Part shown: one piece after another, positions 3,591 to 63,075 of the stretch
Layout of the letters: each line of letters opens with the position of its first letter
Position numbering within the stretch: position 1 is the stretch's first letter
NCBI GenBank assembly: GCA_010405405.1
Contig: MU004236.1
Span: 1,494,070-1,558,069, forward strand
Reading direction: 5' to 3'
DNA from: Microthyrium microscopicum
Lineage: Eukaryota
Length of the DNA: 64,000 nucleotides
Translations under genes and position numbers: made by a program
The notes under the pieces: generated by a model
The model's input: the letters and a program-made list of their open reading frames with translations, nothing else
Database searches by the model: none
Told to the model about the DNA's origin: nothing

Positions 3591-3789
3591 TACCTCTGGT
3601 GCGCGTTCTGTGGTTATCACCCTAAAAATTGCTGGTTTTCTAGACAGAAACTACAGGTCGTTTATTATTGGCTGCTTCAAAGTCTTGGCGGAGAACATCA
3701 AAGTATTGGCCAATTAGCTTAATTACATGGGCCCTATTTTATGAGTGTATTTTTCTAGGGTGATAACCACAGAACGCGCACCAGAGGTA
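3591..3789. mobile_element. MITE (Tc1/mariner-like), 195 bp, TA target duplication
   Basis: Perfect 32-bp terminal inverted repeat CCTCTGGTGCGCGTTCTGTGGTTATCACCCTA at 3593 and ending at 3787, with TA on both flanks and no coding capacity. Confidence 0.85.
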
Positions 3790-4600
3790 CATCTTTCCTC
3801 TACTCCTCTACAACTGTCTTGCGCTTTGATACATGAACCATATTTCTGAGACAGTTGCATCCTGGGTCTTTCCCGGCCTTCTTCATGTTGATAGTCCTTG
3901 CCTGTTGAGGCAGAGCCGTTTCCTGTTCAATCGCAGTTGCCACCAACGCAATCGTTCCTTCCTTCCTTAACCCGTTGGCTAACGCAGCTTGGACCTCTTC
4001 AGCCTTACTTCCTTCCTTCTATACCCACGCTATCCATCTTACACTATTTTATTTCCACTCTCATAACACTCTACCCTCCCTACGTTGACCTCCTCTACAA
4101 TTCACCTTTTCTCCCTAACCTTTGCCGCTACCATCTATCCATTGCCTCAGTTTGTTCACACAAACTATTCCACAAACGCAGCGTCAGAATCACTCGTGCT
4201 GCTTCCAGAAACCGGCCAAATACCAAATCTTCGTCACCAACGTTGCTGAATCGTCCGGCGCTCCGGAACGAATATAATATTCAGACGTCGATATTGCTAT
4301 CAAGCTCGCTCCCTCCTACCTCTGAGCTATCTGCTTCCACCATTCCACTCGACAAGCTATCCATAGCCCTACTACCACAAAGCGTGCCATCGTCATCCAC
4401 ACGCTCTAGTCGATCTCCAGAATCAGCACTGGCCGTTCCTTTCTTCATATACAAGGGGAACTACGTTGGGTTTGCCTGCGCCAAATCCATGTCAGCCTAG
4501 CTACTGGGTTGTACGCTTCTTTGGCTTCTCAACATCCCAACGCTAGCGACGCAGCTAGTTACGCCACCCATTTACAAAACACCATACTACTTAAGCAATC

Positions 4601-8293: not shown

Positions 8294-10980
8294 CTATCTC
8301 CTCCCAAACCCAAGTCTTCTCAACGTCCCCTGTCGATCAACTTGTCTTTCCACCAAGGGCCTATTATCTCCCTCCATCTCCAGTCTTCTCTCTACGGCTG
8401 GCAGCTCACTCGGCGCAAAAGTAAAATCCGGCGCCTCGACTACACCCTCGCGCGGATTAGGAACCCCTGGATCTCGTAGATCATCCTGCCACACCGTCCG
8501 AAATACTTCGATGAACCGAGTTGACTCTTGTGGCAACTTGATCCGCTCGCCACTCGACATGCGCGAGCTGGCTGATGGGCGTCGGCCACGGAATGCGCTG
8601 GTGCTTGGCTGTGGAGAAGGACGAGGCGCAAATTGCACGTAGAGCGTACGAACGCCTTCGAGTATACCATCTGGATCTGTAGAGCCGAGGGATGTCAGCG
8701 TAGGCAGTGGGAGTGTGCTGTGGTCCTTGCTGGCGCTGGACCGCCGACGGAGTGCGTTCTTGAAGCGCGAGGAGGATGCTTCCAGGGGGCTGGATGCGAA
8801 GGTCTCGCGTGAGCCAAGGTCGATGGAAAGGTGGTGGTGCTTGTCTTCATGCGGAAGCTCGCGAATGTCACGGAGCGCAATTTCAATGTGATGTTCAGCA
8901 TGGAAGAAGGAGATGGTGTGCCGGTATGGGTAGGCACTGTCGACCCAGATGTTGAGGCGCTCGCTTTGGGTTAGGCCTGTAGGCATGCCGTAGTTGGATT
9001 CTCGGGGGTGAACGTCAGTCCATACTGTGATATATTAGCTGTTGATAGTGCAAGAATAGGCGATTGGCATACAAAGATCGAAGCCGAATGAGTCTATCAG
9101 TCGTTTGCCTCGTATGGCTTCTTGGAAGTTGTCGCGTGTGGCAATTTCGCCGAAGGTGTAGCGGACTGAGATTTCTTGTTGAAAGTTGTAATCTGGCTCC
9201 ATATACTCAATCATGTGGCGTTGATAGAAGCGCACGGTGAGGCTGTTGCTCATGGAGTCTGGTGGGACGTGTGGAACGACGTATCCTCTAGCTGGTACTA
9301 TCCCTATGTTAGAAAGCAGTATGACCCAGGGCGGTAAACGAACAGTAATGCCTCAACTTTTCGTTTGAGTGGGCGACTTCCCATACTACGCATCTCAATG
9401 AATTGTTGATATGCTCAATGGAGAATTTGACTAGTCGTAATGGTTGGAGACGAGAGGTCAATGTACTAAAGCCTGTCAGTCGAAAAGAAAGTTGTGATTG
9501 TAGAAGGTTTCTTACATAGTTGCGATGGAATAGTCGCTAGCACCTAAGGATATTGACCCCGGGTGAGAAGTCGCTTGTAAACCAGCTGGGTAGGGAGATG
9601 TATATGGGGTCGAGTGAAAGCTTCCTGTGCGATCACGACTGTCAAATGGGCTTGGAGCATTGAAATGTGGTATAGGAGATTGATAACTGGAGGGTCTAGA
9701 CCATTGACTGCTTGGGCGATTGTGGAGATCTGGTGTTGGCGGACCATGTCGACTGTACAGGTCTTGAGCTGGCATAGTGGGCTCAGGCCATCGTAACTCA
9801 TCGTGGCTGGGTGATGAAGATGTATGGTGTAGCGGGCGCGGCGAAGAAAACTCGTCGTCGTCTGCAGCAGAAGTCGCATATTGTGACGATGAAAGCCATG
9901 GCATAGTCGTGACAGGGGGAAGATCTGGCAACGGGGCTTCGATATGTTCCTGAACATACGCTGGTGGTCGGAATGTCCAGTGGATTGAGTGATGTGAGAT
10001 TGAAACCGTCATTTCGCTGAGGTTTCTTTCTGGGAAGTTCAGGAGGTCGACTGAGTCCCTCGGAAGAGGGGGTACTGGGCCATCGATTTGAGCTATACCC
10101 GCTCTTATACACAGAACCTGCCATAACTTAAGTAGCTTATGCTCTAGCGACGAGAAGTTGTAAGGTACACGGCCAGGTCGCAAAGTGTTGATATTCGTCT
10201 CTCTCTTATACATGTATCGAATGGACGCCAGCTCATTGTACAACTCATCAAAACTCCTGTCTAGAGGGGGTATCTCGTCAACAGGGTCTTCTAGAACGGT
10301 GCCAGGCATATTAAGATGCCATGTTGCCATCCTATGATGAATGGGAGTCGGGTCATATCCTGTTGAGGCAAGTCGGAGCTCTGTGCTACTGCTTTCTGGA
10401 TCCTTTCGTGATCTATGGATTGAGGTTAGAACATGCTTTTTGTACTCTGTTCACTCTCAGGAGTACCTACAATGCTCCGAGAAGAAGATAAATATTGAAT
10501 TTACGTATCTCAACTCTGAGCTTGTTCACAAGATCCGAGCAATCGCGGCCGTATATGGACCTGCATTGCATCAGTATATATCATCCGTGTTCATCATAGA
10601 CGCACTTACCAGTGTCCCTGCCATGCTGACCTAAGTAGCGGACCAGAACTCGAAGTTTCAAGGTCTATGCTAGGCAAAAAGCTTGTGTTCTTGAGGTTCC
10701 AGTAAAAGCTGAAGAGCTTCTCACAGTCATTTATAGTTCCAGAGAAGTCATTTGGCTGGGGATAGACGTCAACAAATCGAGTGACTATAGAGTTGAAATC
10801 TGTAAGTACGCGAATAAAGCAGAAGCATGTATCCAGCAGCTCTTGTATTTGTCGTGGAGCATTCTCGTATTCTGAAGGTACCTGGCTGTCATATGGGGTC
10901 GTGAATTTTTGATATTGCTCCTCTGCTTTTTGCACAGCTTGCAATATGTCGTTCTGGATCCATCCAGGCATTGGAGACAA
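8294..10980 (-). CDS. Multi-exon hypothetical protein (about 6 exons; helical N-terminus, Pro/Ser-rich linker, folded C-terminal domain)
   Basis: ORFs 10606-10980, 9512-10330, 9035-9253 and 8294-8986 can be joined through short GT..AG introns with CTRAC-like branch sites (e.g. ...QGHW/SIYGRDCSDLVNKLR.../SRKDPESS...). Confidence 0.6.
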
Positions 10981-42128: not shown

Positions 42129-42357
42129 TCGACCTCTCGAGGGACAATAAGTGAGCCGTTTCGACGACCACTCCCATCGATTGCGATCTTAAATAGCGAT
42201 TACTTGAATTCCCATCAGCGTCGTAAAATTTATATCGAATTATCCAAGACCAAGGTAATCAAAGCAATCACTCTTTAAAAAGTGTTATGGCAAGCCATCG
42301 CAATCGATGGGCGTAGTTGTTGAAACGGCTCACTTATTTTGTCCACGCAGAGTTCGA
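42129..42357. repeat. Foldback/MITE-like inverted repeat
   Basis: 42-bp arms at 42146-42187 and 42297-42338 (AATAAGTGAGCCGTTTC...CCCATCGATTGCGAT, 4 mismatches), with weaker extension outward. Confidence 0.75.
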
Positions 42358-43692
42358 GGTGGGACCTTTATTACCGCCTACTACGGTATTAAAAACTTTC
42401 CTGACCCACCCAACCAAAATGAACCCACTTCTCCGCAATCAACCTTCAATGCTTCATGCACAAAATTGCTCCTAGCATGGCCTATGAGATAACGCGGGAA
42501 ATGTCAGCGACCTAGCCATTGAGACCAATTTCTCCAGCCTTGATAAGAATTCGTGCCAAGTTCCATAAGCCACATACCTCCTTGTCTTTGCACCAGCTCT
42601 ATTCCACGGGCAGTTGAGACTGGGAATTGGTGATCCAGGGCGCAAAAGTGCGAGGTTGGTGGAACTTTTGAAATCTGAACAACCTGTAAGTACTTGTATC
42701 CACGGCTTTTTGAGGTACTGTCAAGCGACCGAAACACTGGTGTTGTATGCACTCCCTACTAGCCTAAAGTAAGGCGGCCACTTCCCCGGACTCAGGAACC
42801 GACAACGCTTTTACTGTTGAAATATGCATCAACCGGCCAACCAGTACTAACTACCTACTGTACACTAACCCCTACTATCCCTAATTTCCAGCAAGTTTTG
42901 GAAACTTCAGGCCAGGACTTGATTACACTTTCGTGGATGCCGTAGAGTGCGTTTCTTTAGAAAGGTGAGTGGTAGCTGATCGTATTACAACCTGACATTC
43001 TGAAAGATAGACTGACAGACCATCAGGTAGACTAACGAGAGTCGCTACCGTTGTTTTTCTAATCTTGTACTTATTTGTAAGCGTACCTGGCAAGGTCTCC
43101 AGCCTTGGCCCACAGGGGAAGACAAACTTGTTCTAGAGACGACTTAAACCTCAACCCAACAGTCCCAACTGTACAATGAGCGTTCTAGAAAGGTTGCTTT
43201 ACCCTGGCCTTGGGAGGCCGCTAATGCACGTGGAGGCTTTAGAAACCGCTCAGCGAGCTGTGCGGCCATGACTCTTACTACATAGTAGAACTTGACAGGT
43301 TTGGCAGGTTTTACGATGGATAGGATAGCATGTCTAGGTAGAGCACAAGAATGCGCCCATCATCGTCGCATTAGAGTTGATCAGCGTTGATTCAAACGCC
43401 TCCGATAAGGCTGTTCTTTAGCAAGCGGCTCAGCGACATTGCTTCGGAAAGAGCTGGATGATAACCGCGAGCAACCATAAGTCTGAGTTGCGTGACGCCA
43501 GCGAGTCAGGACGACTCCAAGCTTTACCGACTAAGACTTTGTGGCGTTTCTCCGCAGTCAAATGCACCCTTCTTAATCATGCGAATTTCTTCGCTTTTCT
43601 TCTGCTTGTTACCTGGCTACTAAACTGTCAAACTGTCTACACAACTTCAACACGTCTGTTGACAGGCATGCTCGCCGGTTCCAGTCTCAGTC

Positions 43693-55412: not shown

Positions 55413-56409
55413 GATACGTCATGCTGAGGAATGCAAGCTAGTGTCAAAATGTAAATAGTACCGCCCGACATGTTTGTTAGGTGCTCAATGAGATTGAATC
55501 AAGGATGTATCTCAAATCGAGACTTTCTTAACAAATCCAAACATTATTTTTGGAAGTTTCCAAGGACTGGATGGGGCTAGAGCAGTAAGGATTGCGTGTG
55601 ATCTTGCCAGGGAGTATGTATGATCTCCTGTATCAGCGCTTGGTGTTGAATGCTACTCCCAGCAAGGAAGTGCTAAAGCCTGCTTCTCCAGGTTCATTGA
55701 AGAACGGTTTGCTTTTGGTACTGAATTGTATGAGATGCTTCGTTCTACAAGCTCAAGATATTCCTAATCACTAATAATGAGTGGTATTTTCCAACCCAAA
55801 CCGTGCATTTTCTTTATTGTCCGTCGATATCAATACCAAGCTAAGGTATTTCCATCACCAACGACTGGACAAAGAACGACTCTTTTCATGCAGCCTGACG
55901 CGGCATCCGAATAGCCGGAACAACCAAAGACTCGCGTTTCCCCAACCTGCCTTGCCTGCATGCACCGTCCGACAGAGCTTGGAGAAGGTGGCAAGCAAGG
56001 TGAAAAAATCCATGGTTTTGAAGGTCGTCACGGTCGTCAAAAAAGAGGTTCAAAAAGACCCTTGCTACGGGCGGATTGTTTAATTGGAAGAAACGTGCTC
56101 ATTTTTATGCCGCTAAGGTACCGCGTGCATGGACTGCCGTCGTCCAAAGCCTGGCTGCCTGGGGGTGCGCGACGCCACAAAGCTCACTGTTGGTTTCAAC
56201 GCTTCTGCGGCCTTTCGCTCTTTTACCCACCTTCCATTCGATCCCAAGGACTTGTCTGGCGGGGCCTGGCCTAAATTTGTCAGTGGGCATGAGTTGGTTT
56301 TGCTGGTTTGAGATGGGCAGGTCGACGAGTGGAATGCAAAGGATGGAGGTGTGTGTGGTGTCGCGGATCTTCCCACTTCCCACGCCGCTTCCGATGTAAC
56401 GAAGAATAA

Positions 56410-56417
56410 TGTGCTCA
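56410..56417 (+). promoter_or_regulatory. Candidate Mac1 copper-response element TGTGCTCA
   Basis: Exact TGTGCTCA about 240 bp upstream of the reductase ATG; variant CGTGCTCA at 56094-56101. Confidence 0.45.
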
Positions 56418-56651
56418 ACATCCTCACGTTACCGCTTACCGGCCTGAATATCCACTTCACAATTGATTTGAGTTGTGCTTTCTTAATTCTCACTACTATC
56501 TTTCGGGTTTAATCTTGTTGGTTATGTCACCTGCCTTGCAACTGTCATCTTACAACCTCCTTCAGTGACTGCCCACTTCAAATCCTACTGCCCTTGCTAC
56601 ACGTCCCAGCGTCCGACTACTAGGCAAACGATATCACACAATTACTTCAAG

Positions 56652-58857
56652 ATGGATATGAGCGGACTGATGGCGGGTGGCATGGACATGACGGTATGAG
56701 AACTTATTGCTATCGAACTATCAAATGACTAAGACTTTCAGGGCGCGTCCATGTTCCAACCGCAAAATATATTCATATCGCATCTATTCTGGTATCTGAT
56801 AACGGCGGTCGTCACCGTCGGACTAATAGCAAACATATGGCAAAGGGTAGACTCAAGGCTAAGGTTAGTTCTTGTTACAAATTTCGCCTATGTTGTCTCT
56901 CATGCGAAATAGGAAGCGCGCCGCCATAGCTGGGACTTCAATGAGGCATCCATCTGTGCCGACTAACGCAGTAACACAAGCTTATGCTACCGTGAGAACA
57001 ATTTTCAGAGAACTCTCATATCCCCAAGGTCTCTACATCACTCGACCTGGATTTCAATGGCTCAGTCCACCAACAGTTGGACAAGGTCTTACCATTTTGG
57101 CTTACTGGATCACCATTACTGTAATGCTCACTACGAATTCCATTAGTCCCAAGTCCGATCCATATTACTTTGAGCGCATTGGATTTCGAGCAGCCTGGGT
57201 ATCAGTCATGCAAATCCCTTTGATTGTTCTTATCGGTGGAAAGGTCAACATCGTTGGCATTCTTATCGGATCATCATACGAACGACTAAACTGGCTTCAT
57301 CGATGGATCTCGCGGACTATCATCGTTACAATCGCATGTCATGCCGGTTTCTTCCTTCGTGAATGGATTCGCGCAGACTTCTTGGCCACCGAGCTTGCAA
57401 TGATGCCCATGGTAAAGTATGGCATGGCCTGCGGTGGTCTCATTCTCTGGATGAATATCAGTGGCTTGGCACCCATTCGACGCCGATTTTACGAATTCTT
57501 CGTCCTACAGCATCTAGCATCGATTGGCGCTCTGCTATATTGCCTTCACACTCATGTCCCGTCCTATGCCATGTTTTACATTTGGATGGCTATTGGCTTC
57601 ATTGCCTTTGACAGAGGCGTTAGAAGCATCTGGGTGGTTTATCGTAACATCAGAATACGGTCAAAGACAAGCCTTGCCCTGGCAGACCGCATTGGCTACA
57701 GAACTGAGATCCACGCTCTACCCGGCGAGACAACCAATGTCGTTATTAAGAACGTCCCTTTCACCTGGTCACCAGGTCAGCACGTCTACATCTGGATCCC
57801 ATCTATGGGCTTCATTGAAACTCATCCGTTCACGATATCCAATATCGCCACTGAGAACTCAGATGGTCTTACACAGAGCGCCGGATACCAGTCGTCAAAT
57901 GGTGAACATCATGCTAACCTTCAGATTCGAGCACATGGCGGTTTCTCTCGACGTCTCCACAACCTCGCGAAACGACATGCAACGGATTCTAAACCATATG
58001 AAGTCCGTTCGTTCATCCAAGGCCCCTTCGGCACCCATCCTACATGGAACACATTTGAGACTCTAGTCCTCATCTCTGCCTCAACTGGCGGCTCGTTCAC
58101 CCTCCCTATCATGGAATCCATCCTCGCCGACCCCTGTTGCGTACGGAAGTGTCATTTCGTACTACTAGTCCGCGAATCGCCACAATGCTCCTGCTATCTC
58201 CACCGCCTCCGTGCCATCGCCCGCGCATCCAAGCACCCTAACCTTACCGTCTCAGTCCACGTTGCTGTCACAGGCGAGAACAACGAGGGTGAAGCATTCG
58301 AAGGCGATTTGGCTGGCCGTTGCTGCTGTGGAAACGACGTAACCGGATCTGGCTGTGTCTGTGGCTCAGATAAGACTGCTAAGCGCATTAGTATCGCCAG
58401 CAGTTCAGATGAAGACAGCACCGCGGAACAAATCGGTCCCGTAGCGAGCTGTTGTGCTCCAGTAGTTGAGGAAGAGCAGACAGAAAGCTGCTGTGCTCCA
58501 GCCAAAGAAACTGCTACCACAACGGTGGTCAATGAGAAGACTGGCCTAGAGCCAACGATTACAGCAACGTCGAAACCTCTCTCAATGTCTTCAACAGACA
58601 CAAAAATGCCCACGATATCACTATACGGCACGGCCACTCGCGATGTCAACTTTGTGGCCAGACGACCCCTCCTTTCGCACACCATCCGCGAAGCTGTAGA
58701 AGCAGCTAGTGGTGAGACATGTGTGGTAGTATGTGGCGGCAAAGAACTCTCCGGCGATGTAAGGAACGAAGTCGTCAAGCTCTCAGACGAAAGAGCAGTA
58801 CATAAGGGCACAGGCGCACAAGGCATTGCACTTTGGGTCGAAGAGTTTGGTTTCTAA
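56652..58857 (+). CDS. Ferric/cupric reductase (FRE family), 3 exons
   Basis: Exon 1 MDMSGLMAGGMDMT; heme histidines LHRW...H and FFVLQH...LHTH; FAD motif HPFTI; QGPFG; ISASTGGSF; CGG; C-terminal EEFGF. Confidence 0.92.
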
Positions 58858-59046
58858 AGTTTGATATATCCCACATTTTACTCATTCACGAATGTAATAT
58901 GATTCCTTACTCTCTCTTCCCAAAAACACACCTCCCCCATCACAATAACACATGAACACGGACAGCTCCACCAGCAACGAAATCTGGCCATCCTTTCTCT
59001 GCACCTCAACCACAACTAGCATCCAAAAAAACATGGAAACCACAAA

Positions 59047-59310
59047 CAAAAATTAACGCACCTCCAGCTTGCGCTGGAAGTGCGTTTGTAAAAAGCCTAT
59101 TACGGCTTTTTTAGTCCCCATCTATTATGACTCGCGGGGGGTTCGAACATGAGGTCTCGAGGGGGGCGGAGGATCGGGACCAGCAGCTCCTCCCACGGGT
59201 CCCTCCTAGAGGGAGGGAGGAAAGACTGGCCAAGACGGGTTAACTATGGGTTAGTCAGCTTGGGGGAGCCAGGCAGATACCGCTGTGCCAACAACTCCCC
59301 CAACTGTTGA
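59047..59310 (-). ncRNA. Candidate structured non-coding RNA of unknown class
   Basis: GC-rich intergenic island with four hairpins whose mismatches are G-U pairs on the minus strand, a GCAA tetraloop, and AAUUUUUG directly after the last hairpin. Confidence 0.5.
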
Positions 59311-59657
59311 AGAGGAATTGCGCTGAAATAAAATATATACTGCTTGGGCGCTGCTTTCGGGACAGTCATACATCTTCACTAGATACTGTACCCAACTGTT
59401 TTGGAGGGTTTATATCGAATGCAGGGAATGGAATTATAATGGGATTTAATTATTGGATAAGGCTGAAATTCAGCCTGATGGTTGGAATTATGAGATGGTG
59501 GTCTGAGAGAAGTAATTTGCGGGCTTCGGTTACCATACGCGAACAAAATAAACATTAACATAAAGCAAAACCAATCCCTTCTATCTAATCCAATGCGATG
59601 TCTAACCTCTATGTACTCAAATCCTGGTCATATCAAACGACTGTACCCACTATGGAC

Positions 59658-61534
59658 TCAAGTCCCCTTTTGCTCGTTTCCAGCACCAATGTATTTGTTG
59701 ACTATCGTGGCAGTAGGTGGCCCTGGGACAATCTTCTGGGTAAAAGAGGCTATTTTGAAGCCGCCAGGTTGAAATCGCTGGAAGATACCATTGGGATCGT
59801 ACTTCAAGCTGACACCGACCATACGTTCGTTGCTCTCTGTACCGTATGCTCTGATGGGGTTCTGGAACTTTGCTGCATAGTTGAGATAAATGAAGCGTGA
59901 AAAGACGCCAGCATCATTGGCTTTCCTTTGCGCCTCCTCAAACAAGTCGCGCGCAGCTTTCTCTACGACATTGTCATGACTGGCTGAATTGTAGGCCACT
60001 GTCAGCAGTGCTAGAGTGGTGTCTGGCGCATTTTCGAGGCCAAGAGAGTTCCCACCCTCTGATTTTGCCTTGGCTAGTGTGCCCTTCGATAAATGTTGGA
60101 ACGATAAGGACCACTGGAGTCCAGATGTGACGGCATAGGCAATGTCAAACTGCTGCTTGGATATTTGGTATACTGTCTCCATGAAGGATGCTGAGTTTTT
60201 GAAAGTGAATGACATGAATAGTTGACGTCTACCTTCTCCGCTTAGTACTTTGAGTTCTTGGGAAAAGCTGGTAGTATTTGATATACGTCCAGTGTTGTAT
60301 ATGGCGGTTTGAAGCATAGGTTGGAGTATGGCGGGCTTGGCCTCGTTCTTCGTGTACTGGAAGTTTGCTGTTCCAATTGTCATTGGAGTTCCTAGGATTC
60401 CCATTGAGTTGAAAGTCAAGATAACATGCGCATACGGATCACCAGTCCTGATAAGTCCTTCGTACCAAGACATCATTTTCGGTCGGTCCGAGTCGACAAA
60501 GGTAGTGTTCAGAATAGCAAGTCCACCGTAGTATGGGCCTTGTTCGAATGTCTTCAAGTCAAATCGGGTTACGATACCAAAGTTTCCAGATCCTCCTTTC
60601 AATGCCCGAAAGAGGTCCGAATTTGCGAGACTGTTGGCGTTTACAATTTCGCCTGAGGCGAGCACAACCTATTGCAATCGTCAGATGAAGCTTATGACCT
60701 GCTGCCCAGACCTACCTGAAAGTTGACAACATTATCGCACACAAATCCATATCTCGGCGTAAAGAATGATATTCCGCCGCCAGTCAACAAACCGCCTACG
60801 CCAACGTTGGCAACTCTGCCCGCTACAACCCCCAAGTTTTTAAGATCTAGCTTGGCGAAAATATCTCCCCATCTGTTTCCTGGGCCCACTCTGACTACAG
60901 ACTCGTCCGACCATAAGTTGATTTGATTTAAGCCAGAGAGATCAATGGTCACGCCATCAGCGATATTATTCGCCGTAGGTATCGGAGAATGGCCTCCACT
61001 TCGAATAGCAAATGGGCACTTCCCAGTTCCAATATTCGCGGCGGATATTGTTTTCATTATTGTCGAGACATCTTGAGTCGAGTTTGGCTGAACGAAACAC
61101 GATGGTTGTATATCGCGATTCTGCAAGGCCCAGAAGAAGGACAGTTGACGATTGAATGCCTGAGAGTTGTAGATGGTTCCTTGGGTGAGGACTTTGCCAG
61201 GTAAAGCAGTAGATAAGGAGTTGCACTGCAAGGATTAAGATTTAGCAAACGATGGTCTCGACAATGCTGGTGAACTTACACATGCTATCAATGCTGTACC
61301 TGCTGCTTCCCCAGTCGTTGATCTGTTAGCTCCAACATTTTCATGACTCAACTCGCTAGTTGTGGATTCAGTTTGACTGAAACCACCGGATTGAAGCTGT
61401 GACAAGAGAAACAATGGGTCATGAATTCTCTCTTCTCTTTGGGAAGCTGTTGTTGAGCTTGAGGTTTCTGTATCACACTGAACTGCTGTCAGTCGTAGCA
61501 GCGCATACAGCGCATAAAATACTTTCGAGCGCAT
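59658..61534 (-). CDS. Secreted FAD-linked oxidoreductase (VAO/BBE family), 3 exons
   Basis: Signal peptide, FAIRSGGH flavinylation motif, VGVGGLLTGGG, DLFRALKGGSGNFGIVTRFD, YLNYA, KYDPNGIFQ. Confidence 0.92.
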
Positions 61535-63075
61535 ATTCGAAAACTAGAACAGCTTGGAGCAGAGCATAGCGAACCCGTAATGACTGTGTATGGCGCGATA
61601 AGCCGTGTTAAAAGGGCAGTACTTTCTACGAGTTATGCCGTATCTGAATGTCCAAAAATTTATGCTAGGATAGTACGATCTCGTCTACAAATTTATTATG
61701 CAGCCGCATAATAGATTACCGAAGCAATAAGAATCTGTGAGCCTCTAATAAATGTTCAAGATTTTGCAATAATAGATCTGACTTTTATAGTTCACACGTC
61801 TCCTGGTTACGCGTGGTGGTAACTTATTTTGCTGTCAAATGGTAGCGTGTCCGAAATGAGATCTCCATTGAGCGAATCGGGAACAATTGCGGACACGTTT
61901 GATTGCTTCATTTAGTAGACGCCGGCCCGTTTTGGCTGGAGCAGGTATGTAGGGTGGCTCTTGCTCGGCACGGTCGCGGATATGCCCTCGTTATTCTGGT
62001 ATAAAAGAAGTAAGTACCGTACTTCTAAATGGTATCTTGCGAGAAAACGAGAAAACGAGGAACCAAAATGAGCGGATATCGCAATAGTGGGATAATTTTG
62101 CTGGCCAAACTGGCGAGGTTCGACACAGTTTCTTGGGCGAAATCCATTAACTTCTGTCAGTGTTGAGGCCAACAACTTTGATGGACGCGGCTTCATGGTG
62201 TGCTTGACGCTTTGCAACAATATAAGGCAGCTCTGGAATCGCAGTCTACTGGTGCAGCTATTTGAGCCCGAAACCTTGTTCAAACTGCTCTCTGCCGGCA
62301 TGTCGCTCCCGTCTATCTGTCAAAATAGCGACGGGACACCGAAAGAATAGAACTCTTGAACCTAGAATCTATGGAAGTACGTAGGACATAGTATGATCGA
62401 AGCCTAGACGACTGGTCGGCCAATAGGTCTCCTGTGTATCAGAGACTTGGCCAGCACATCCTAGTCCTACAAGGCTGAGACCTGAGAGTAGCGGAATAAA
62501 GGGAGGATATCCGTCCACAGATGATCGGGAAGGTTTATCAGCCAGGTTCTTTGATTAGCAGTCGGACTTTCGCTCTCCTCCAACAAACTTGGTCTATTGT
62601 GCAATAACCGAACATATTTGGTAAGTCGAAGGACTCCGAATGATCTCGGAAAAAACCTTGTTATAGGATTCAGGTACAAATGAAGATATTTCAGATGTCC
62701 ATGCCTCCGGGGCTGAGTTATATTGAGAAATTCTCGGGCCGCGATAGCGTCCAAGTTTCACAAAGAGCTATTCCAGGAGGGTAGCCATGGCTCTGGATTT
62801 TCCTTTGGTCACCACTAGCTTAGATATTGCCTGTATATATTATCTTGGAAGCTCAACAGGGTAGCTCGTTGCTTGAGAAGAAGCAACTTGTAGTTCATTG
62901 ATGTCACAGCAGGACCCCAGTGCATTCAAAGGTTTAGTACTTCCCGCCTCGACATTGTGATGCACAATGATAGCATATCATCGCTCGACTCGCGCCTTAC
63001 CAGTGTCAAGAAGGACATATGTAGTTGCGGGCGGCAACCCTTTTGCTCTTTTCACTCAAGAGGACTGCGTACATT

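Follow-up and report, generated by a model that had tools for sequence, protein, structure and literature searches.

On contig MU004236.1 of Microthyrium microscopicum (GCA_010405405.1), an intergenic element of 264 nt (positions 59047–59310 of the 64-kb stretch analysed here, hereafter the window) is a strongly structured, single-copy island that lies in transcribed DNA and bears a minus-strand signature. The explanation that we tentatively place first, while holding it to be rather less than probable, is that the island is a small minus-strand gene for a structured non-coding RNA of the Pol III type. An earlier note on this DNA had offered two other identities, i.e., a compact telomerase RNA or a new Sm-class RNA. 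The practical outcome is negative: the telomerase reading falls, and the locus stays a candidate structured RNA. If real, this RNA would be an addition to the few known Pol III or small non-coding RNAs of filamentous fungi, and it would be a structured small RNA outside all 4227 Rfam families, located where it could act on an iron-uptake mRNA.

The island and its hairpins

The island has a G+C content of 59% (59100–59299) vs. 38–45% in the adjoining DNA and sits between two convergent genes, as the earlier note had described. Every feature listed in that note was found in the sequence where it had been placed. The features to which the text refers are as follows.

56249–59543, strand not shown: RNA contig of run X1, 3198 nt, spliced at 56693–56740 and 56862–56910
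End at 58857, plus strand: ferric reductase ORF (Pfam Ferric_reduct, FAD_binding_8, NAD_binding_6)
End at 59658, minus strand: FAD_binding_4/BBE-type oxidoreductase ORF, convergent with the ferric reductase gene
59334–59339, minus strand: TATATA box in the sequence, lying ~30 nt ahead of hairpin 1; a pyrimidine-rich stretch comes next
59254–59306, minus strand: hairpin 1, a UUGGGGGAG/CUCCCCCAA stem with an internal loop, topped by an apical stem of 4 bp
59280–59290, minus strand: A-box-like TGGCACAGCGG at the apex of hairpin 1, with one mismatch to TRGCNNAGTGG, at about +19 from a putative start near 59308
59237–59254, minus strand: linker CUAACCCAUAGUUAACCC, the 'template' of the earlier note, also readable as a branch point plus an AUAG 3′ splice signal
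59178–59231, minus strand: hairpin 2, a nested pyrimidine/purine hairpin of 21 bp
59131–59171, minus strand: hairpin 3, weak, containing the B-box-like TGTTCGAACCC (fold and motif match)
59139–59149, minus strand: B-box-like TGTTCGAACCC, with one mismatch to GGTTCGANNCC, at +160, beginning 141 nt past the A box
59090–59111, minus strand: hairpin 4, AAAAAGCC-GUAAUA-GGCUUUUU (fold and inverted-repeat arms)
59055–59086, minus strand: hairpin 5, a 14-bp stem with a GCAA (GNRA) tetraloop
59046–59054, minus strand: AAUUUUUGU, a motif match either to an Sm site (one mismatch) or to a second T5 stop of Pol III

The arms of hairpin 1 (59260–59268 and 59295–59303) are 9 nt long and 100% complementary, those of hairpin 4 (AAAAAGCC/GGCTTTTT) occupy 59090–59097 and 59104–59111, and those of hairpin 5 (59055–59068 and 59073–59086) measure 14 nt each. 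Read on the plus strand, the linker is GGGTTAACTATGGGTTAG at 59237–59254, with GGGTTA at 59237 and again at 59248. In the minimum-energy fold, a 7-bp closing helix joins 59233–59239 with 59117–59123 and thereby pairs the CCC at the 3′ end of the linker. The letters directly after hairpin 5, at 59054–59046 on the minus strand, are AATTTTTGT.

It is unlikely that the element codes for protein, as no coding frame stands out; four of the six frames are open for 42–59 aa from stop to stop, as expected for GC-rich DNA. A second copy was not found in the 64-kb window, and two of the sequencing runs (X2 and X5) each yielded one contig across the 6-kb stretch 56000–62000, with no contig matching it in part. 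Thus, the element is not a young dispersed repeat. A search for flanking direct repeats as insertion marks found none beside the island.

Fold statistics, strand and transcription

The minus strand of 59040–59320 (281 nt) folds at −115.4 kcal/mol, compared with −87.4 ± 4.9 kcal/mol for shuffled sequences (z = −5.68), and none of 200 shuffles folded as well. The plus strand over the same 281 nt reaches −114.1 kcal/mol (z = −3.47), and again no shuffle out of 200 matched it. In a G+C-corrected scan of 200-nt windows (n = 1277), 59051–59250 ranks second on the minus strand and fifth on the plus strand, and the windows more extreme than it are plain long inverted repeats, which are different in kind. 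The energy of the whole element carries no strand information (−113.8 vs. −113.0 kcal/mol).

Two other structured stretches were seen in the window. The most structured of all, 42135–42365 on the minus strand, is a long imperfect hairpin of ~230 nt (−123 kcal/mol, z = −9.8) that is overlapped by no ORF of at least 80 aa. At 3591–3790, perfect arms of ~34 bp surround a 130-nt middle (z = −6.2), an arrangement that resembles a small inverted-repeat (MITE-like) element.

Strand information comes instead from the discrete hairpins. All four are more stable on the minus strand than on the plus strand: −27.1 vs. −24.9 kcal/mol for hairpin 1, −32.7 vs. −29.2 kcal/mol for hairpin 2, −26.4 vs. −21.1 kcal/mol for hairpin 5, and −9.1 vs. 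−8.0 kcal/mol for the remaining one. Their stems contain seven G–U wobble pairs on the minus strand vs. none on the plus strand (sign test, p ~0.016), three of the seven being in hairpin 1 and three in hairpin 2, which bears out the earlier observation that stem mismatches are G–U on the minus strand and C–A on the plus strand. In addition, the loop of hairpin 5 is GCAA, i.e., a GNRA tetraloop, on the minus strand only, and reads UUGC on the plus strand. This 7:0 asymmetry, together with the GNRA loop, favours a minus-strand RNA in the modelled folds. The earlier claim of a structured RNA on the minus strand is thus backed by the fold z-score of −5.68, the rank of 2 among 1277 windows, the 7:0 G–U count and the GNRA loop.

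The stretch is covered by five sequencing runs, whose contigs were aligned to 56000–62000. The contig of run X1 skips two GT..AG introns that the DNA runs retain, showing that X1 is RNA, and this contig spans the element, so the locus lies in transcribed DNA. From 56911 to its end at 59543 the contig is colinear with the window and free of differences, taking in the stop codon at 58857 and all of the element; cover is absent over 59618–62000. Neither its strand nor the ends of any transcript are visible in it, and the ferric reductase mRNA alone could explain the cover.

That last point is the core of an explanation in which the island is not an RNA gene in its own right: the plus-strand ferric reductase mRNA would have a long (~690 nt) 3′ UTR, or read-through, that includes it, and the hairpins would be either incidental (e.g., the GC-rich remnant of an old insertion) or active in the mRNA. 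The colinearity of the contig from the spliced ferric reductase exons through 58857 and the element to 59543 is what this explanation predicts, and it also agrees with the better-than-shuffled fold of the plus strand (z = −3.47), the similar whole-element energy of both strands and the failure of a metagenome scan to find relatives. However, a plus-strand origin does not account for the 7:0 G–U bias, for four of four hairpins being more stable on the minus strand, or for a loop that is GCAA there vs. UUGC on the plus strand. The insertion-marking direct repeats are absent from the flanks, and the A-rich sequence at 59025–59052, just before the island, resembles the usual fungal poly(A) region. 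We regard this explanation as plausible, though on balance doubtful.

The minus-strand pair bias would also suit a Pol II transcript of ~500 nt that starts at 59543 or beyond and runs antisense over the 3′ end of the ferric reductase gene, with the hairpins as its structured 3′ domain. Such a transcript would take in 59311–59543, the part of the RNA contig that lies upstream of hairpin 1. It has a precedent in the fungal ies6 and SART-1 antisense motifs, whose strand was assigned from GNRA or UNCG loops and G–U pairs in the account excerpted from Li and Breaker (2017, PMC5640933). The same argument applies here, with loop and G–U pairs on one strand and A–C on the other, and again the element lies opposite the transcript of a protein gene; the excerpted account, however, lists 12–34 examples with covariation, whereas here there is a single locus, for which the metagenome scan found no relative, and no Rfam family. 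Against the long antisense transcript, the contig has neither strand nor start, 59311–59543 is AT-rich and outside the structured windows, and the layout of TATA, A box and B box described below would then be a coincidence. We consider this transcript unlikely, though its probability is not negligible.

At the 5′ splice sites of the short introns of this genome (48–49 nt; 56693–56740, 56862–56910 and the 60666–60691 region) the letters are GUAUGA, GUUAGU and GUAGGU, and at the 3′ ends CAG or AUAG. The RNA contig confirms splicing of the first two introns. At the second ferric reductase intron (56818–56912), run X4 is split into several contigs of ~60 nt with 2–3 differences and lower depth, a pattern suggestive of a polymorphism or of a second allele.

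The linker also admits a splicing interpretation: in a minus-strand transcript, hairpin 1 together with CUGACUAAC...AUAG would be an introner-like intron that folds into a hairpin, or the relic of one. Here CUGAC is followed by six bases and AUAG, compared with CUGAC, seven bases and AUAG in the intron of the neighbouring oxidoreductase gene; a GUUGGG at 59304 has G at +5, and hairpin 1 would bring both intron ends close together. However, the RNA contig is unspliced here even though both ferric reductase introns were removed from it, GUUGGG differs from all of GUAUGA, GUUAGU and GUAGGU, and the window holds no look-alike elsewhere. An intron would also leave hairpins 2–5 unexplained, and we judge it improbable.

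Telomerase, Sm-class and other known RNA classes

The telomerase proposal of the earlier note was that a compact telomerase RNA templates the repeat (GGGTTAACTAT)n; a second, telomerase-like RNA was considered here as well. The note pointed to a boundary helix directly 5′ of the template, and this observation stands: hairpin 1 ends at 59254–59256 and the motif begins at 59254, such that a stable helix ends 1–2 nt 5′ of CUAACCCAUAGUUAACCC, resembling a yeast-type template boundary. In Aspergillus, the boundary helix lies ~2 nt from the template in the excerpted account of Kuprys et al. (2013, PMC3603654), and the spacing found here agrees with that distance of ~2 nt. The 1.5-copy 'template' fared less well. 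UAACCC does occur twice at an 11-nt period, but the pair is weak as a signal: of 5000 dinucleotide shuffles of the element, 2% contain two telomere-type hexamers within 6–15 nt (P = 0.02), and four other pairs of such hexamers were counted elsewhere in the window. Moreover, the CCC of the 3′ 'alignment' copy is paired in the closing helix. The 11-mer, in six of its permutations, was not a telomere repeat in any of the literature matches listed, where it occurred in primers or constructs.

Other telomerase hallmarks were lacking or not seen. Rfam includes telomerase models, and none of them matched. A pseudoknot next to the template was not seen by eye in the sequence or in the predicted folds. 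In the excerpted text of Qi et al. (2012, PMC3592445), the Neurospora crassa telomerase RNA is 2049 nt long with a template–pseudoknot core of at least 295 nt; also required is a P6/P6.1 junction whose stem has 4 bp and whose loop reads NUNGN. The three-way junction is absent here; the sole P6.1-type pattern, CCCU-CUAGG-AGGG at 59213, caps an uninterrupted helix of 14 bp and occurs with P = 0.28 in shuffles. The earlier note had itself found no convincing pseudoknot or CR4/5 and had remarked that described Pezizomycotina telomerase RNAs are about 2 kb long. The 264 nt of the element compare with 2049 nt in N. crassa and fall short even of the minimal Neurospora core of 295 + 39 nt.

The 3′ end differs too. 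In Aspergillus telomerase RNAs, a U-rich site marks the 3′ end and precedes AUAAGU and a branch point, as excerpted from PMC3603654, whereas the U-run here has neither a 5′ splice site nor a branch point after it, and no AUAAGU or GUAAGU lies within 130 nt past 59046 on the minus strand. As far as the excerpted papers describe them, the Pezizomycotina telomerase RNAs share with the element a helix near the 5′ side of a single-stranded UAACCC and, close to the 3′ end, a U-rich site, but are much longer and possess a pseudoknot core, P6/P6.1, and AUAAGU with a branch point. A tiny telomerase RNA has been reported in moths (PMC11892584, excerpted text), which lends the small size some precedent. 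With no Rfam match, no three-way junction, no splice signal and a length below the minimal core, the element is not a telomerase RNA, and that a telomerase-like RNA would nevertheless template this repeat is extremely improbable.

When metagenomes were scanned for the 'template' 18-mer, eight loci were returned, all of them chance matches alike over only 18–21 nt. Two unrelated metagenome contigs that turned up by chance (L008:1393–1430 and L001:1690–1740) contain 3–4 internal tandem copies of an 11-mer similar to TAACCCATAGN.

The alternative offered by the earlier note was a new Sm-class RNA, i.e., a Pol II transcript of ~260 nt with a TATA promoter and an Sm ring on AAUUUUUG at its 3′ end. 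An Sm-like motif, AAUUUUUGU, lies directly after hairpin 5, and a TATA box with a pyrimidine tract upstream and the minus-strand bias of the pairs would be in keeping with such a gene. However, the site has one mismatch, lacking the final purine of RAU(4–6)GR, and matches of this quality are not enriched, given 65 one-mismatch RAU5GR matches in the window vs. 78 expected. No hairpin comes after the site, the models of U1, U2, U4, U5 and the minor snRNAs did not match, and the same letters form a T5 stop that can equally be read as a Pol III terminator. A new Sm-class RNA, resting as it does on one imperfect motif, is possible but quite unlikely.

The earlier note had called for an Infernal search against Rfam (telomerase, snRNA, SRP, MRP/P), and this search matched no family. 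At gathering scores, Rfam gave no match across the 64 kb, the ribozyme families included, and at E ≤ 10 over 1.5 kb and over 331 nt it gave only three sub-threshold matches: BjrC68 (22.3 bits, gathering score 39), SNORD98 (19.7 bits, gathering score 50) and whalefall-1 (12.1 bits, gathering score 37). All three reflect a likeness to terminators or simple hairpins. BjrC68 (RF02353), a bacterial sRNA, shares with the element two hairpins followed by a U-run, and the apex CCAGCGCAAGCUGG is identical; however, the family is bacterial, its 22.3 bits fall below 39, and any terminator hairpin with a GNRA loop would look as similar.

Several other classes were considered and rejected. ARAGORN found 0 tRNA genes in the window, and attempts to assemble an acceptor stem or a T stem manually were unsuccessful, also when mRNA-type introns were allowed to split the tRNA. 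For a tRNA-derived SINE, no other copy was present in the window or in the aligned DNA contigs. A loose descriptor of an HDV-like ribozyme matched hairpin 1 only (P1 and P3), with a non-unique partner for P2, and with P1.1 and P4 missing. Box C/D and H/ACA snoRNAs, U1, U2, U4 and U5, SRP RNA and RNase P/MRP RNA were recognised neither by eye nor by Rfam.

A Pol III-like motif layout on the minus strand

The order of motifs on the minus strand is suggestive of a Pol III gene, as read from the sequence. The general A-box consensus is TRGCNNAGTGG. A TATA box at about −30, an internal A box at +19 and a B box at +160 would recruit Pol III, and transcription would begin near 59308. Across the 214 nt of 59308–59095 the longest T run is 3, although the absence of T4 is expected in an estimated ~70% of such sequences. 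T5 stops follow at 59094–59090 (the U5 of hairpin 4), which is the first T run of at least 4 after the putative start and lies 196 nt past the A box, and at 59052–59048. Termination would thus take place either at the U5 of hairpin 4, leaving an RNA of ~219 nt, or at the U5 past hairpin 5, leaving one of ~261 nt. On the Pol III reading, the 'Sm site' of the earlier note is the terminator. The product would carry five hairpins, as folded, and a 3′ oligo-U end, and it would be antisense to DNA that is co-transcribed with the ferric reductase mRNA, on which it could conceivably act. In this scheme we infer the polymerase, the RNA ends and any function.

The single motifs are no more frequent than chance, with 26 A-box-like sites in the window vs. 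21 expected and 12 B-box-like sites vs. 10 expected. Their combination is rarer: a TATAWA lies 30–70 nt upstream of one of the 26 A-box-like sites, namely that of the present element, and a B-box-like site lies 25–300 nt downstream of two of the 26. All three signals, i.e., TATAWA, a B-box-like site and a downstream T5, come together at one of the 26 sites, here only, in a layout that was spotted post hoc after many motifs had been tried. The A-box-like TGGCATAGT sites at 9770, 9899, 14134 and 32109 in the window do not form a repeat family.

Known Pol III genes offer comparisons. The SNR6 promoter of yeast has TATA at −30, an A box at ~+20 and a distant B box beyond the terminator. The island shares with it TATA, A box, B box and T run in like order and at like distances; in SNR6, however, the B box lies beyond the terminator, and the RNA here is not U6 (no Rfam match). 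In tRNA genes, the spacing between A and B boxes is shorter than the 141 nt found here. In the excerpted text of Yang et al. (2013, PMC3547838), Pol III makes the pri-milRNAs of Neurospora crassa, of ~170 nt, from intergenic loci that have TATA-like elements and, downstream, a T cluster. Like the island, these genes are intergenic and give a short hairpin transcript, with TATA-like elements, putative A and B boxes at some loci, and a T cluster after the hairpin; unlike it, as far as the excerpted text goes, they form one Dicer-type hairpin rather than five GC-rich ones (one of them with a GNRA loop), and no sequence similarity to them is shown.

Several points weigh against the Pol III reading. 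The A and B boxes carry one mismatch each and the counts of single motifs are those of chance; the 141-nt spacing is long; a stop at the first U5 would exclude hairpin 5, the best hairpin; the unstranded X1 contig, which is continuous with the ferric reductase mRNA, also covers the 233 nt that precede the proposed start and needs no minus-strand RNA; the metagenome scan found no relative; and the two strands have the same whole-element energy. A bolder extension would make the island the first member of a new family of Pol III-made, structured RNAs of ~220–260 nt in filamentous ascomycetes, encoded opposite the ferric reductase mRNA tail as an antisense RNA that controls this mRNA or iron uptake, which we consider a long shot.

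A 17-nt direct repeat (82% alike) was also noticed close to the putative start, at 59299–59315 and 59391–59407. In both copies, spaced 92 nt apart, the minus-strand letters are AACAGUUGGG, and one copy lies at the foot of hairpin 1.
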